NCBI GenBank assembly: GCA_041480025.1
Contig: JBGOZA010000001.1
Span: 1 to 49,199 of the forward strand
Reading direction: 5' to 3'
DNA length: 49,199 nucleotides
DNA from: Candidatus Bathyarchaeia archaeon
GTDB taxonomy: Archaea; Thermoproteota; Bathyarchaeia; RBG-16-48-13; GCA-020355125
How positions within the stretch are numbered: the first letter of the stretch is position 1; every line of letters starts with the position of its first letter. The notes under the pieces were generated by a model. That model worked only from the letters and a program-made list of their open reading frames with translations. It was not told the DNA's origin and made no database searches. Positions 8,803 through 44,551 of the stretch are shown here, in pieces. A program made the position numbers and the translations under genes.

Positions 8803-9228
8803 CTATTTCCATTTGCGAAGTACGAATAAGGTGTTGGTTGTTTGAACACCCTCAACCTCGCGCATCAAATCGATGCATCCATTCACCGAAGATACATCTT
8901 GCCCTGAGACTACAACACCTATGTCGAATTGACCAGCAACTTCCATGACTGAATCAACCCCGTCCAAGGCAGCGATATTCTTTGCAATAGTGGGAACCGG
9001 AACTCTCGGCGATGTCGAAATGAAGACTAACGCTCTTGGGTGATTCTCGGCAGTTTCCACTGTAAACTTCTTAATAATGCCTGATTCCGTCAGATTCTTC
9101 ACACGCTGCCTCACAGCGCCCTCCGAGAGATCAAGCTTCTTAGCAATCTCGGTGAACGGAATCCTAGCGTCTTCTTTCATAATTGAAAGAATCTTAGCGT
9201 CAAGAGCATCCAGTTCGATCACCCACAT
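8803..9228 (-). CDS. Lrp/AsnC family transcriptional regulator
   Basis: 141 aa. wHTH LDAKILSIMKEDARIPFTEIAKKLDLSEGAVRQRVKNLTESGII followed by a RAM domain. Confidence 0.85.
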   Translation of the reverse strand: MWVIELDALDAKILSIMKEDARIPFTEIAKKLDLSEGAVRQRVKNLTESGIIKKFTVETAENHPRALVFISTSPRVPVPTIAKNIAALDGVDSVMEVAGQFDIGVVVSGQDVSSVNGCIDLMREVEGVQTTNTLFVLRKWK

Positions 9229-9270
9229 TATTCAGATCGGAAAAATGGATCATCACATAAACATGATCCT

Positions 9271-9399
9271 CTAGTGATCTGGTTTAGTCAACAATACCTG
9301 AGATTTCTTCTTTCTTCTCTTGGAGGCTTTTCTTACTGCGCGTCGCTTCCAGTCATGGATCTCCGCGTATTGCTGAATGTAGGCCAGTGCCGCTTCCAT
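9271..9399 (-). CDS. 42-aa small ORF with Lys/Arg-rich tail (hypothetical)
   Basis: Below the 60-aa track cutoff. AGGTGG lies 7 nt upstream of the ATG, which is 12 nt after the stop of the 81-aa ORF. Translation: MEAALAYIQQYAEIHDWKRRAVRKASKRRKKKSQVLLTKPDH. Confidence 0.35.
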   Translation of the reverse strand: MEAALAYIQQYAEIHDWKRRAVRKASKRRKKKSQVLLTKPDH

Positions 9400-9411
9400 T
9401 CTAAACCACCT

Positions 9412-9657
9412 CTATTTCACGACGTCAAGCGTACTTGATTCTGGACTATTGACATATCGCGTGCAGTCTCGATGCGTGAATGGATTTAGCTCGACTACTT
9501 TCTCCATCAGTCCTCTATTGCGCGTAACTATATACCGGTATTCCAAGTCTTCTTTGCCAAGCAAACGTTTCAGTTCTGGTAAATAACCATAATATCTTCC
9601 ATCATCCGAGTCAGACAGGAATATTGAGCAGAACGCGCCGTCGGCACAGTGAACCAT
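9412..9657 (-). CDS. hypothetical 81-aa protein, second gene of the AbrB-led module
   Basis: Its ATG immediately follows the TAG of the upstream AbrB-like ORF (TAGATG). No family recognised. Confidence 0.5.
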   Translation of the reverse strand: MVHCADGAFCSIFLSDSDDGRYYGYLPELKRLLGKEDLEYRYIVTRNRGLMEKVVELNPFTHRDCTRYVNSPESSTLDVVK

Positions 9658-9822
9658 CTATGCAGCCTTCTCGATTACTATTTGATGACTATCGTTTATG
9701 CTGAGAGTCACATTGTCACCTATCTGAAGCCCCGTAGCTTTGAGGAGTTCATCTGGGATTGTTACTCCTGCTGAACCGCCGCTTTGGCGTATTTTTCTCT
9801 CAAACTTTACTACTGCACACAT
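9658..9822 (-). CDS. AbrB/MazE/SpoVT-family DNA-binding protein (54 aa)
   Basis: Hand-translated, below track cutoff: MCAVVKFERKIRQSGGSAGVTIPDELLKATGLQIGDNVTLSINDSHQIVIEKAA. Shows the typical swapped-hairpin SpoVT-AbrB signature (GGS..VTIP...gl..GD.v). Confidence 0.6.
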   Translation of the reverse strand: MCAVVKFERKIRQSGGSAGVTIPDELLKATGLQIGDNVTLSINDSHQIVIEKAA

Positions 9823-9881
9823 GCTTCTTATCTACTCCAGAAATATCTCTTAAGTTGCATATATATATTACGGGTGTGCTA

Positions 9882-9890
9882 GCGCGCGCG
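9882..9890. repeat. alternating GC tract GCGCGCGCG (non-coding)
   Basis: Read directly. In a divergent spacer, 13 nt after an (AT)5 run at 9859-9868. Confidence 0.9.
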
Positions 9891-9910
9891 AGTCTGCCGA
9901 TTCAAAGCCT

Positions 9911-10397
9911 GTGGCCTTGATAACTGAAGGAACTAACATGATAGGAGCTGAGATTTCTTCAGAGCGAGAAGTTGAAAGAAGGATATGCAATCTAGTCAAG
10001 CAGACGCCGGGACTTGTTTTGGCGGACTTTGCTGGAGCAGATATAGATCGGCTAAACTCCTTCTATAAGGCCAGCAAGAAATGCGACAGAAAACTAGCAC
10101 TAAGCATGCGTCAAGCTCATCTTGTGAACAAGCTCAGAGGAGACCCGCAGCAAGAAATCCCAAACATTCATGACAGCGATATCATGGTCTTTCAGAAATC
10201 GAAGAAGCGCTACAACAACTGGGAAAAAGAAATCCTACAATCAGCAAACATTGCAGACGCATCAAAGATTGGGACAACGCAGGACAACGCGCGCGTTTCC
10301 AGTACATTGTGAATATCCTGGTCTCTTCGAACGGTTCATAGGAAACACTGGTAGCAAGATAGTTCTTCCAGAGAAGGGAAAAGAATACTCTCTATGA
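9911..10397 (+). pseudogene. remnant of an MBL-fold (beta-CASP/RNase J-like) hydrolase gene
   Basis: Frame 9911-10312 (ITEGTN...ADFAGADIDRLNSFYKASKKCDRKLAL...) resembles the middle of archaeal MBL-fold hydrolases but lacks the HxHxDH N-terminal part. After the GC tract a second frame ends ...GSKIVLPEKGKEYSL, resembling the family C-terminus. Family call is from memory only. Confidence 0.4.
10288..10295. repeat. alternating GC tract CGCGCGCG inside palindrome AACGCGCGCGTT (10286-10297)
   Basis: Read directly. Sits at the frame break of the MBL-like remnant, preceded by tandem GGACAACGC(a)GGACAACGC (10272-10290). Confidence 0.9.
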
Positions 10398-10464
10398 TTC
10401 TCAGGAGCGAAGGGTATTTAAAGGAGATATGAGTCCTTCGCTGAAATCTTTAGAGGAACAATCA

Positions 10465-10542
10465 ATGGGAAAAGACAAGAAGAACAACATGGAAAGCAAG
10501 AAACAGAAGAAACAGAAGCTTGGAAAACCAAACAAGCGCTAG
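10465..10542 (+). CDS. Lys-rich micro-ORF (25 aa; 37 aa if started at ATG 10429)
   Basis: MGKDKKNNMESKKQKKQKLGKPNKR. GAGGA lies 7 nt upstream of ATG 10465, and the TATA-like TATTTAAA sits at 10414-10421. Coding status unproven. Confidence 0.25.
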   Translation: MGKDKKNNMESKKQKKQKLGKPNKR

Positions 10543-10692
10543 TATTCTCCTACAATAACCTTCTCAGTTTTAGACTGTTTCTTTAGCAGTCTAAGCTTAA
10601 CAGCTTGAGACCGGGTATGGTTTTGGCATTCATAAGTACTAAATCAGAAGTTTCTCTGATTCGCATTCTAGAAGAGATGTGACGGTGTACCG

Positions 10693-11430
10693 ATGACGTC
10701 GAACAGAGCCATCTCCTCCTTCGAGGACAACGAAGACGAAGGAAACAATTTTTATAGGATTGGCAATCTGGAAGGAAACGTGGACACTGCAATTTCGAGA
10801 GGCGCACAGCCGAAGAAGAGGGCGAAACAGAAAGCATTCGATGTCGACCTTAGTGGACTCCAGGGAGAAGGCGAATTTCCATGCCCAAAATGTGGCACTC
10901 TGATCTCGCCCGAAGATGAAAGCGAAGAGACCTACACTGTTGTCGAAACAAATGGAGACGACGAATCGATCGAAGAAGTCATAATCCAATGCAAGAAGTG
11001 CGACAGTGTAATACGACTCAAAGGTTTTGATGAACTTGAGGAAGCTGCAGAACCAAGCAGTGTTCAAATCTCAGAATCGTTAGAAGATTCAAAACCCGGA
11101 TTCAGAACCACTCATTCCATCTCAATTGAAGGAAAAGTTGTGGGCAAAGTAGCAATAGAGTATCTTCAGGAAGAGGATTTGAAAGCCTTCGCAAAAATCA
11201 GCAAAAGCATCAAGGCTGGCGACGCATTTCAAGCTAGAATATTCATAGACTCCTCAACCGGAACCTCAGTCGCTAGTCTTGGAAGCGGTGGGCTGGCTGA
11301 GATGGTCAAAGTTCTGAAGAAGCGGGGTAAGGGCATAAGAGAAAGAGACATCTTCGTTGTATCGATTGAGGGGGGCAAAGAGAAGCTCGTAGGTAGAGCA
11401 GATGCCTTGACTCAAGACCAAGCCGGATGA
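10693..11430 (+). CDS. hypothetical zinc-ribbon protein (245 aa)
   Basis: Acidic N-terminal region with CPKC...CKKC ribbon, then an uncharacterised C-terminal domain. Confidence 0.5.
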   Translation: MTSNRAISSFEDNEDEGNNFYRIGNLEGNVDTAISRGAQPKKRAKQKAFDVDLSGLQGEGEFPCPKCGTLISPEDESEETYTVVETNGDDESIEEVIIQCKKCDSVIRLKGFDELEEAAEPSSVQISESLEDSKPGFRTTHSISIEGKVVGKVAIEYLQEEDLKAFAKISKSIKAGDAFQARIFIDSSTGTSVASLGSGGLAEMVKVLKKRGKGIRERDIFVVSIEGGKEKLVGRADALTQDQAG

Positions 11431-12181: not shown

Positions 12182-12237
12182 AAAGACGCTGACAAATCCT
12201 AGGCAAATCAATAGCTAGCGCACACTTTCTATGAGGA

Positions 12238-13062
12238 CTATATCAAGAGCCCTCCGCTCACATTGATGACAATGCCCGTAATATAGGATGACCGATCGGA
12301 AACGAGGAAAAGAACCACCTCAGCTACTTCTTCAGGTGTTCCGATTCTCAATACTGGAACTGCTTTTTTGTACTCATTTGCCTTCTCCATACCAACTGTC
12401 TCCCGCACCATATCGGTATCAATGATTCCTGGACACACAGCATTCACTCGGATTCCAAAAGGTCCTGCTTCTTTTGCCAATGCCTTGGTAAGTCCCATCA
12501 CCCCATGCTTTGAGGCTGTGTAGTGTGCTCCTCCGAAATTGCTGACACCCAACCCCGCCGTGGATGAGAAGCTCACTATGCGGCCATAGCCTTTCTTCTT
12601 CATCAGAGGATAGACCTCGTGCATGAATAGAAATGTTCCACGAAGATTCACGCCCATGACTCTGTCCCATTCCTCAACCGTCAATTCATGGAAACGGGTT
12701 GTCATGTGAATGCCAGCACAGTTTACAAGAAGATCAATGCTTCCGAGTTCCTCAGCAGTATCTTCAATGATTCGGTGGACTTGTTCTGAGTCAGAGACAT
12801 CACACGGTTTGACATATGCTTCTACACCTTCTCTCTTCAACCTCGTAGCGACAGCATTTAGCTTGTCAACTTTGATGTCAACCAGAACCACTATAGCTTT
12901 CTCTTCCCCAAATCTCGAGGCAACAGCCTCCCCTAATCCTTGAGCTGCACCAGTAATGACTGCAACTTTTCCAGCCAGTTCGCCTTCATACACCATGAAA
13001 GACACTCCCTCTCTTCTGATTCTTGAAAGAATACCAATCCACGATAACATCAGCCTCTCCAA
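12238..13062 (-). CDS. short-chain dehydrogenase/reductase (FabG-like)
   Basis: GKVAVITGAAQGLGEA Rossmann motif, NCAG, and YTASKHGVMGLTK catalytic YxxxK. The likely start is the internal ATG at 12996 (MVYEGEL...). Confidence 0.8.
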   Translation of the reverse strand: MERLMLSWIGILSRIRREGVSFMVYEGELAGKVAVITGAAQGLGEAVASRFGEEKAIVVLVDIKVDKLNAVATRLKREGVEAYVKPCDVSDSEQVHRIIEDTAEELGSIDLLVNCAGIHMTTRFHELTVEEWDRVMGVNLRGTFLFMHEVYPLMKKKGYGRIVSFSSTAGLGVSNFGGAHYTASKHGVMGLTKALAKEAGPFGIRVNAVCPGIIDTDMVRETVGMEKANEYKKAVPVLRIGTPEEVAEVVLFLVSDRSSYITGIVINVSGGLLI

Positions 13063-13141
13063 GCATAAGAATTGTTCTCCAGCAACACAAATGCTCCATG
13101 ACCTCCCGGATCTACAGCCGATCAGATTCGTTGGCGCTTAG

Positions 13142-15737: not shown

Positions 15738-16670
15738 TTACTCTGCCTCTCCCAAGGTCAACTCCATGCGCAGATGTCGAGCACTCCTAGCGACCGATAC
15801 TTCAATACTATCACCGATCTTCCTAATCTTCAAGGCGTTCTGAAGGTCATCCATGTTGTCTATCTTGTCATCATCTATTCCAACAATGACATCACCAACA
15901 ATGATGCCAGCGTAGCTCGCAGGACTGTAAGAACCTACCCGCATAACGAGGACTCCGCGTCGCGGGAGACTGTAGTATTCAGCTATCTCATCAGTGATAG
16001 TAACACCTGATATTCCCATCCAAGGACGCACAACACGACCGAACTTCAAGAGGTCTTGAGCTGCCTGCTTGGCCACGTTAATAGGTATAGCGAATCCAAT
16101 ACCTTGCGCAAAAGGAATCATAGCATTGTTTATTCCTATGACTCTTCCATATTCGTCAACCAAGGCACCGCCACTGTTCCCAGGATTGATTGCTGCATCT
16201 GTCTGGATTAGATTTTCGAACACCTTCGACTCTGCCCTAATGTGTCTGTTTAAGGCACTTATCACGCCAGCCGTTACAGTGGGCCCGCCAAGGAGAAAAC
16301 CAAAAGGATTTCCAATTGCGATGACTAGTTGACCAACCCGCAGAGCGTCCGAATCTCCTAGCTCAACACTCCTAAGACCCGCAGAGTCTGATCGTATGAC
16401 CGCGATATCAGTAATCTGATCTGTTCCAACAATACTTCCAGAGAGTCTTTTTCCGCTATTCAATGTGACAGCAACTCTGGAAGCGCCAGCAATAATATGA
16501 TGATTCGTCAGTATTGTTCCTTCACCATCGATAACGATCCCAGAACCCATTCCTTGCACAGGAACGCTATTAAAGAACGAGTCATGCGCCAGATGAACAG
16601 TACTGATGTTAACAACAGCATCTTTTGCTTTCTCAACAGCTCCAATGACTATTTCGCTGTAAGATGGCAT
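15738..16670 (-). CDS. HtrA/DegP-like trypsin-fold serine protease with PDZ domain
   Basis: TNHHI, DIAVI and GNSGGALVD catalytic-triad contexts with a C-terminal PDZ-like region. Confidence 0.85.
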   Translation of the reverse strand: MPSYSEIVIGAVEKAKDAVVNISTVHLAHDSFFNSVPVQGMGSGIVIDGEGTILTNHHIIAGASRVAVTLNSGKRLSGSIVGTDQITDIAVIRSDSAGLRSVELGDSDALRVGQLVIAIGNPFGFLLGGPTVTAGVISALNRHIRAESKVFENLIQTDAAINPGNSGGALVDEYGRVIGINNAMIPFAQGIGFAIPINVAKQAAQDLLKFGRVVRPWMGISGVTITDEIAEYYSLPRRGVLVMRVGSYSPASYAGIIVGDVIVGIDDDKIDNMDDLQNALKIRKIGDSIEVSVARSARHLRMELTLGEAE

Positions 16671-16740
16671 ATCATCCTCTCTTGATTAGTCAAGACTCGA
16701 GTATTGCGGTTTATAAGCGTACTTCTTGATCCAATATTAG

Positions 16741-16748
16741 CGCGCGCT
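16741..16748. repeat. alternating GC tract GCGCGCGC (non-coding)
   Basis: Read directly. Located in the 258-nt divergent spacer between htrA and ssb. Confidence 0.9.
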
Positions 16749-40944: not shown

Positions 40945-41021
40945 AACAACGGTCCTACTCAGACTATGTTTCTCACGGAACGGACATTTCAGCACACCAC
41001 ATTGCGTGCGATCAAAGATTT

Positions 41022-41028
41022 CGCGCGC
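41022..41028. repeat. alternating GC tract CGCGCGC (non-coding)
   Basis: Read directly. Preceded by a segment homologous to 10241-10270. Confidence 0.9.
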
Positions 41029-41129
41029 TACAAACTAGCAGTCAACAAAAGGACCGATACACAAACAAGCATCACCAAGGCCTACCATTGGATAATCATT
41101 AATTACGATACAGATATTTGTATCCAATA

Positions 41130-44430: not shown

Positions 44431-44507
44431 GATCGGAAGTAGTGGAAAATCCGAAACTCCTAGTCCCGTCCTGGAAGGAAATCGGGACTCTACTCAACAG
44501 AATCGTA

Positions 44508-44515
44508 GCGCGCGC
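44508..44515. repeat. alternating GC tract GCGCGCGC inside palindrome AGCGCGCGCT (non-coding)
   Basis: Read directly. Located in the purA-cgi121 spacer. Confidence 0.9.
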
Positions 44516-44551
44516 TGGCATCCACAGGACTAAGCGCAGAATTAGCCAGTC

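Follow-up and report, generated by a model that had tools for sequence, protein, structure and literature searches.

Deletions sealed by de novo GC tracts in a decaying RNase-J-like hydrolase gene of a Bathyarchaeia archaeon

Introduction

What breaks a gene at two places that both carry the same short run of alternating G and C? The question is raised by positions 9882-10397 of a 49,199-nucleotide stretch (hereafter the window; contig JBGOZA010000001.1, positions 1 to 49,199, forward strand) from the metagenome-assembled genome (MAG) GCA_041480025.1 of a Candidatus Bathyarchaeia archaeon. A reading of this DNA from its letters and open reading frames (ORFs) alone, here the sequence-only reading, had described the remnant of a metallo-beta-lactamase (MBL)-fold hydrolase gene with a GC tract at each discontinuity. 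It had suggested that the tracts, instead of being passive spacer sequence, are junctions or hotspots of deletion or rearrangement. Comparison with alleles of near-identical strains demonstrates deletions, or near-pure insertions, sealed by (GC)4 tracts created de novo. We lean towards a reading in which the MBL gene was dismantled stepwise, each deletion being sealed by a newly written tract, with a Ku-independent writer of the microhomology-mediated end joining (MMEJ) type.

Results

Two deletions in the MBL gene, each sealed by a GC tract

The remnant and its intact counterpart consist of the following parts; L098 and similar handles denote strain contigs.

9882-9891: GC tract 1, filler GCGCGCGCGA (containing GCGCGCGCG at 9882-9890), which replaces 859 bp (L098 3760-4618)
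9892-10287, + strand: remnant segment A, read by ORF 9911-10312 and covering the last stretch of the MBL domain and the beginning of the beta-CASP domain
10288-10295: GC tract 2, CGCGCGCG, junction of an internal 237-bp deletion (L098 3127-3363), which causes a frameshift
10296-10397, + strand: remnant segment B, C-terminal ~33 residues (FPVHCEYPGLFERFIGNTGSKIVLPEKGKEYSL) and stop codon, in a frame that differs from that of segment A
L098 3021-4390: intact MBL allele, every conserved motif in a single open frame

Strain contigs were gathered by exact match to the adjacent Lrp protein and by a scan of metagenome contigs; other exact-protein look-ups gave no match. Two of them, L098 and L099 (95-97% nucleotide identity), carry a full-length MBL ORF with all motifs at the same locus, and this comparison with close relatives, proposed from the sequence, defined the losses as 859 bp and 237 bp. 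Both discontinuities mapped exactly onto the GC tracts, as had been claimed. For the larger deletion, L098 4619-6192 aligned with window 9881-8306 and L098 3364-3759 with 10287-9892, leaving 9882-9891 unaligned. The 859 bp comprise the N-terminal MBL half, the upstream spacer and one ORF of 81 amino acids (aa), and the same junction was found in L013, L101, L102 and L107, which come from independent assemblies. Given 8 alternating-GC runs of at least 8 nt in 49 kb, the chance that both breakpoints would land on tracts is ~1e-5. For the octamer GCGCGCGC, the window has 7 occurrences where 0.11 would be expected.

The tracts could have been there before the gene broke. The ancestral flanks show that they were not: they read 'gtgtgcta/caatac' and 'atcgaagc/gtctgcc' at the 859-bp deletion and 'caggaca/aaacta' and 'agaaacgt/gtttcc' at the 237-bp deletion (slashes mark breakpoints), with no tract and merely 1-3 nt of G/C. 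Since the ancestral breakpoints lack a tract, the tracts are new filler and not old motifs, and they are indeed deletion junctions; both gaps in the gene are filled by 4-10 nt of (GC)n. Native TA lies directly 5' of the tract at 2 of the 4 deletion junctions of the MBL locus. A further feature, the 9-nt tandem duplication GGACAACGC(a)GGACAACGC at 10272-10290, had been taken for a slippage footprint and proved to be something else. The intact allele reads GGAACAACGCAGGACAAAAC in this region, so native codons (G-T-T-Q-D-K) account for the first copy and for GGACAA in the second, and the filler contributed no more than the final CGC.

Identity of the decayed gene

ORF 9911-10312 had been read as the central part of an MBL-fold (beta-CASP/RNase J-like) hydrolase, and tblastn of intact homologues from relatives against the MAG bore this out: residues 210-340 matched 9893-10285 (53% identity, E 4e-41). 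The last ~35-47 residues matched ~10290-10394 in another frame (E 9e-8), confirming that this second frame, which ends ...LPEKGKEYSL-stop at 10397, is the C-terminal strand of the same family. Segment A corresponds to residues ~210-341 of a 454-aa RNase-J-like beta-CASP MBL hydrolase homologue; it is 95% identical to L098 in protein and 94.7% in nucleotide sequence (L098 3364-3759), and segment B is 89% identical to the L098 protein. A six-frame search of related genomes found homologues in 41 of 61, the best 50-54% identical and with open frames of ~430-480 aa.

These intact homologues match Lactamase_B_2 in profile searches and score 88-114 bits against TIGR00649 (RNase J family), under its curated cut-off of 400. 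In the PDB they retrieve RNase J structures and 2az4, the best match being the uncharacterised EF2904 (2az4). Because the intact orthologues fall below the RNase J threshold, the gene is, by sequence similarity, rightly named an RNase-J-like beta-CASP MBL hydrolase and not a proven RNase J. Searched by itself, the fragment yielded nothing informative in Pfam, weak RNase J matches only in NCBIfam and PDB searches, and no match in a scan of genome contigs; an Rfam search of window 9000-11000 returned nothing.

The missing HxHxDH half noted from the sequence is a true loss. The window has lost the entire N-terminal half (residues 1-209, which include HSHSDH / HSHTDH) together with the HVSGH region; ~80 residues from the interior are gone as well. 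With HxHxDH and other metal-binding motifs gone, the locus is therefore a pseudogene and not a functional family member, in itself an ordinary thing. The missing 209 N-terminal and ~80 internal residues were found nowhere in the 1.41-Mb, 85%-complete MAG. The intact paralog that the sequence-only reading hoped to find there by tblastn did not turn up either: the MAG holds no other copy of the orthologue, only distant beta-CASP paralogues on contigs C10, C11 and C198.

An intermediate allele with two tracts

One strain contig, L101, retains the 237-bp segment and carries a GCGCGCGC patch at each of its ends. Both patches are in frame.

L101, patch 1: caggaca / 22 nt / ctacg becomes caggacaGCGCGCGCtacg (22 nt to 7)
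L101, patch 2: gcggaca / 17 nt / gtttcc becomes gcggacaGCGCGCGCgtttcc (17 nt to 8)

The junction of the 237-bp deletion reads caggacaACGCGCGCGtttcc in the window and caggacaGCGCGCGCAtttcc in L013, each one G-to-A change away from the recombinant expected of the two L101 tracts. Window 10288 and L013 1365-1373 show the same junction, with G-to-A at opposite ends of the expected GCGCGCGCG. The existence of a two-tract allele, together with junctions one G-to-A from its expected product, indicates that the 237 bp were most likely lost between tracts, probably by recombination between the two. Tract 2 of the window starts atypically with C because it would be the product of recombination between two L101-type tracts. 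Transitions at tract ends may be a mode of tract decay; no C5-methylase that would explain the G-to-A changes was found among the 26 genomes searched (see below).

Other tract-associated events in the window and in a related species

Similar events affect other genes and spacers.

9658-9822, - strand: MazE/AbrB-like gene (PF04014, E 2.8e-6)
9412-9657, - strand: 81-aa partner ORF of the MazE-like gene, with a strain-polymorphic tract-sealed deletion
16740-16747: intergenic GCGCGCGC, absent from the related species L128 (87% identity)
44485-44532: 48-bp segment with a tract at 44508-44515, replaced by a new CGCGCGC junction in other strains
48896-49142, - strand: remnant of a response-regulator receiver, with (GC)5 at 49051-49060 at its internal break

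In L013, L101, L102 and L107, CGCGCT stands in place of 179 bp of the 81-aa partner (window 9477-9655), and the junction reads atGCGCGCGCta; at this site the window allele keeps the ORF and has no tract. All four combinations of the states of this deletion and of the 237-bp deletion exist among strains, which therefore either recombine with one another or undergo recurrent tract-to-tract deletion. In L100, 1324 bp were lost and replaced by CGCGCGCGG, and the boundary coincides with one of the L101 tracts.

The MazE/AbrB-like module (window 9271-9822, - strand) consists of the MazE-like gene, its 81-aa partner and a 42-aa ORF; its small partner ORFs have no Pfam match. The MazE-like gene persists in several strains whose 81-aa partner is knocked out by the tract-sealed deletion. 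In the intact strain the module and the MBL gene are separated by an extra 81-aa ORF (L098 4392-4637).

At the receiver gene, L125 (99.4% identity) encodes an intact 137-aa receiver (PF00072, E 1e-24), and the window has 7 nt, CGCGCGC, in place of 231 bp. The ancestral flanks, 'caacagg/ttt' and 'ctata/gctt', again contain no tract. At 44485-44532, L115-L117, L125 and L126 read aaatCGCGCGC(c/t)aGCGCagaatt, a second-generation deletion at a tract site. This event and the two-tract L101 intermediate of the 237-bp loss support the other half of the original proposal, that tracts are hotspots once present.

Comparison with L128 extended these observations to another species. At 16740 L128 reads caatatta/ctttaaat and the window caatatta/GCGCGCG/ctctcaat, a near-pure insertion of 7 nt after TTA; allele alignments revealed no target-site duplication there or at the L101 patches. 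L128 has independently deleted most of the MBL gene, leaving the junction gcagtaAGCGCGCGCagcttcta. It also lacks the short-chain dehydrogenase (SDR) gene that is present in the window (12184-13141) and in L098; the joint, ccgcGCACGCTcattgg, resembles a (GC)4 tract that has suffered a single G-to-A change (GCACGCT). One tract of L128 is absent from the window. Between the two, 4/4 indels of at least 5 nt involve a tract. Among strains at least 99% identical, one non-tract indel of at least 4 nt was seen, a 15-bp in-frame tandem duplication. This duplication (ccaacaatgacatca/ccaacaatgatgcca) lies at window 15880 in an HtrA-like protease gene (15738-16670) and is absent in strain L110.

Independent events with a known tract-free ancestor thus include losses of 859 bp, 179 bp, 22 nt, 17 nt, 1324 bp and 231 bp. 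An overlap of 1-3 native G/C bases is seen on ~7 of their 12 joint sides; the expectation is ~0.23 per side. At least six events combine, relative to a known ancestor, a deletion, a short insert and terminal microhomology, as a repair scar does. The hexamer GCGCGC occurs inside the deleted 859-bp and 1324-bp regions and in neither the 237-bp nor the 231-bp one.

Tracts across the genome

The MAG contains 334 alternating-GC runs of at least 8 nt. GCGCGCGC occurs 746 times (both strands) against 9.2 expected, a ~80-fold excess that makes it the most over-represented octamer. Run lengths peak sharply at 8 nt (224 runs of 6 nt, 101 of 7, 231 of 8, 54 of 9 and 44 of 10). The flanks are biased close to the tract only: A stands at -1 on 76% of sides, with T at +1, followed by TA (48%) and TTA (39%), beyond which conservation ceases. 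The extended word (T)AGCGCGCGCT(A) is the most over-represented in the genome; on the reading we favour, the process that seals the deletions has made it so. Open frames of at least 120 aa make up 84% of the genome but contain just 13% of the tracts; purifying selection would confine them to non-coding and dispensable DNA. The tracts themselves are unselected, being polymorphic, decaying and found in pseudogenes.

Tracts are ~2 times commoner near contig ends (67 within 300 bp against ~31 expected), many of them ~85-146 nt in, about k-mer distance. Such an excess is expected of polymorphic junctions, and the contigs of the assembly seem to end where tract junctions differ between strains. Many contig pairs of the MAG overlap by 200-600 bp at 93-99% identity. 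Tracts are also clustered, with 51 neighbouring pairs at most 60 nt apart. Paired tracts are often separated by 8-60 nt, as at C34:9440-9500, C125:171-220 and C50:5463-5520. Short DNA pieces may carry a tract at each side, as if fragments had been re-joined or captured with two seals.

AGCGCGCGCT is enriched in some other genera of the same family (94 copies in one 2.0-Mb genome that is a single contig, and 65 and 42 copies in two further genomes) and, in the related genomes compared, absent from other genera of that family. The trait is real, lineage-specific and patchy.

Discussion

How would the tracts be written?

On the reading we favour, the primary lesion would be a short patch, ~0-25 nt replaced by GCGCGCGC, as the intermediate allele suggests. 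Two such patches would then act as 8-bp repeats, recombination between them removing the intervening DNA, and tract sites could also be re-cut or re-deleted. The least secure step is the writer, which would be a Ku-independent, microhomology-mediated end joining activity of the core replication/repair machinery. The best candidate is MMEJ of the type performed by the archaeal replicative primase PriSL, which in this lineage would build a self-complementary (GC)4 bridge. Pfam domains of other candidate writers were sought in 26 genomes, including the tract-rich G000 (the MAG), G002 and G009, and also G005.

Ku (PF02735): found in the tract-rich G005 only
RVT_1 (PF00078): found in G007 and G017 only
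C5 methylase (PF00145): found in none
Y1 transposase / RAYT (PF01797): found in G013, G017 and G018 only
Prim-Pol (PF09250): found in none

None of the five was detected in G000, G002 or G009. End joining by Ku/LigD, reverse-transcriptase-templated addition, RAYT/IS200 activity and Prim-Pol were set aside on this ground, as was conversion of the HIP/Dcm-Vsr style, there being no C5-methylase in the 26 genomes. Fill-in of a restriction site (AGCGCT to AGCGCGCGCT), or deletion between two such sites, was rejected since no AGCGCT is present at the ancestral breakpoints.

In PriSL-mediated MMEJ two GC pairs are enough to join the ends, and the primase acts as a terminal transferase and can polymerise across discontinuous templates (PMC12019639, PMC3333859). 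In Saccharolobus, PriSL(X) MMEJ resembles the process described here in being Ku-independent, in using very short G:C microhomology, in producing error-prone indels and in occurring in Thermoproteota. The tracts differ in being a fixed 8-nt palindrome with A/T flanks, at deletions of 0 to >1000 bp.

Several points weigh against this account. The products reported for PriSL(X) MMEJ are mostly 1-2-bp indels with no constant filler, and the assignment is an analogy with Saccharolobus that leaves the enzyme a candidate. Simple joining at GC microhomology fails by itself to explain the narrow length (7-10 nt, mode 8), and leaves the flanking A (-1) and T (+1) equally unaccounted for. In the 179-bp event the T belongs to the filler, and others contain 1-2 extra non-GC bases (GA, GG), as if a defined unit or template were involved. 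In L101 each patch begins after the same native GGACA(A), which suggests copying from a nearby tract over untemplated synthesis. All of the evidence comes from short-read metagenome assemblies. Finally, none of the codons ATG, GTG and TTG occurs in the L098/L099 frame from the upstream stop to the conserved LTFYGG (LTFYGGVGEIGG) strand, and the gene caller starts at Met48. The 'intact' gene may start at an unusual codon, or may have been inactive already; lacking a canonical start, it was perhaps dying before the deletions.

Alternative explanations

Some of these points would be met if a dedicated or selfish system wrote one fixed unit, ~AGCGCGCGCT, into breaks, an explanation that we consider rather unlikely. 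In one version the unit would be a self-complementary, purine-initiated oligonucleotide of primer length, self-templating and captured at breaks; in another, tracts would be copied from existing tracts by microhomology-primed template switching, making a self-propagating scar. The tight length distribution with its peak at 8 nt, A/T flanks that are sometimes part of the filler and a flank consensus that decays outward (A, TA, TTA) all fit a fixed unit, as does the lineage-specific, patchy occurrence of the trait. The GGACA(A) preceding both L101 patches would fit as well, but it is a single case. Flanks of 3-6 nt are shared between tract sides slightly more often than in column shuffles, an excess that could reflect natural k-mer bias, and flanking homology over 60 nt does not exceed that of controls, so that copying of long flanks along with the tracts was discarded. 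Nor is there a candidate gene, reverse transcriptase and Prim-Pol being undetected in the three tract-rich genomes. The spacer between leuS and the HD gene (40989-41034) was considered as a decayed copy of the MBL flank (10241-10295) and dropped, its local alignment score of 16 being at chance level; 70 tract pairs and 57 control pairs score at least 16.

Cut-and-paste elements offer a different source of constant scars. Excision of the P element and of Tc1/mariner elements leaves a constant, often palindromic scar of a few nt, sometimes with loss of flanking DNA and often with one flank fixed. The tracts share the constant scar and the flank loss, and could be footprints of an unseen element with terminal bases (A)GCGC...GCGC(T) whose imprecise excision chews the flanks. 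The filler is indeed constant and palindromic regardless of flanks, several deletions have one side fixed at native TA, tracts cluster in dispensable DNA, and repeated elements are often lost from MAGs. We nevertheless regard this origin as improbable. The MAG contains no repeated sequence starting AGCGC, and in ~45 strain contigs over ~21 kb each tract-free allele is simply intact, none holding an element. Target-site duplications are missing at 16740 and at the L101 patches, T stands at -2 in only 42-48% of tracts with no conservation beyond +/-2 nt, and the joints use G/C microhomology. Y1/RAYT transposases were not found in G000, G002 or G009, DDE transposases not having been screened.

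The tracts might instead be pre-existing functional intergenic motifs (a regulator site, an uptake or terminator signal, or a Z-DNA element) that attract recombination. They are intergenic, palindromic and very abundant, and tract sites do undergo further deletions. The cyanobacterial HIP1 (GCGATCGC) is a highly iterated octamer palindrome, abundant inside genes and linked to methyltransferases. Like HIP1, the tracts are an 8-nt GC-rich palindrome and by far the most over-represented word in the genomes of their lineage; unlike HIP1, 87% of them lie outside long ORFs, they arise as insertions at deletion joints, and PF00145 is missing from the 26 genomes. Z-DNA-forming (CG)n tracts promote nearby breaks and deletions. 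Such instability fits the second-generation events; it explains what happens at existing tracts, not the de novo ones at tract-free breakpoints. Pre-existing motifs are very unlikely, since none of the breakpoints bears a tract in the intact alleles, tracts are polymorphic between 99%-identical strains, lie within pseudogenes and are eroded by point mutations (GCACGCT at the SDR junction of L128), and the tract at 16740 is absent from L128 though the surrounding spacer is conserved.

Sequencing or assembly artefacts are hardly credible, even with short-read metagenome data throughout and tracts enriched near contig ends, because identical junctions come from different samples, assemblers and archives (JGI, ENA, NCBI, Logan), the alleles form a coherent nested series, and the motif is also enriched in the single-contig genome of another genus.

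What the scar means

The constant palindromic scar, unlike the pseudogene, appears to be new, and is akin to an MMEJ or filler-DNA scar; we found no description of a constant palindromic GCGCGCGC scar in the searchable literature on archaea, deletions and Bathyarchaeia. The GC clusters of yeast mitochondria are elements of 30-50 nt with their own sequence families, for example the 42-nt GC42 (PMC4478555). They and the tracts are alike as short GC-rich palindromes in AT-richer non-coding DNA, recombinogenic and with fast turnover between strains (PMC4478555). The tracts differ in having a unit of 8-10 nt and in sealing deletions in a cellular archaeal chromosome.

A bolder statement is possible, and we offer it tentatively: in some Bathyarchaeia, a previously undescribed DNA-rejoining process would write a fixed self-complementary word, ~AGCGCGCGCT, at breaks. 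In its boldest form the word would be a self-templating palindromic oligonucleotide of primer length made by the primase, or the product of another dedicated writer, and so a minimal selfish replicator spreading via break repair. Because every (GC) joint can pair with every other, such scars would drive further deletions and rearrangements. If this is true, fixed-word rejoining would be the main way in which these genomes change structure and lose genes.

At the MBL locus, the allele series (intact gene, small patches, two-tract intermediate, large deletions) catches a mutational process in the act in uncultured archaea. The process accounts for the dominance of one octamer in these genomes, and the tract provides a simple marker of recent deletions, pseudogenes and insertion seams in Bathyarchaeia MAGs. 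The scar, if confirmed, would show how archaea without Ku rejoin broken chromosomes, and tract-sealed deletion would be a built-in engine of gene loss, that is, of genome reduction.

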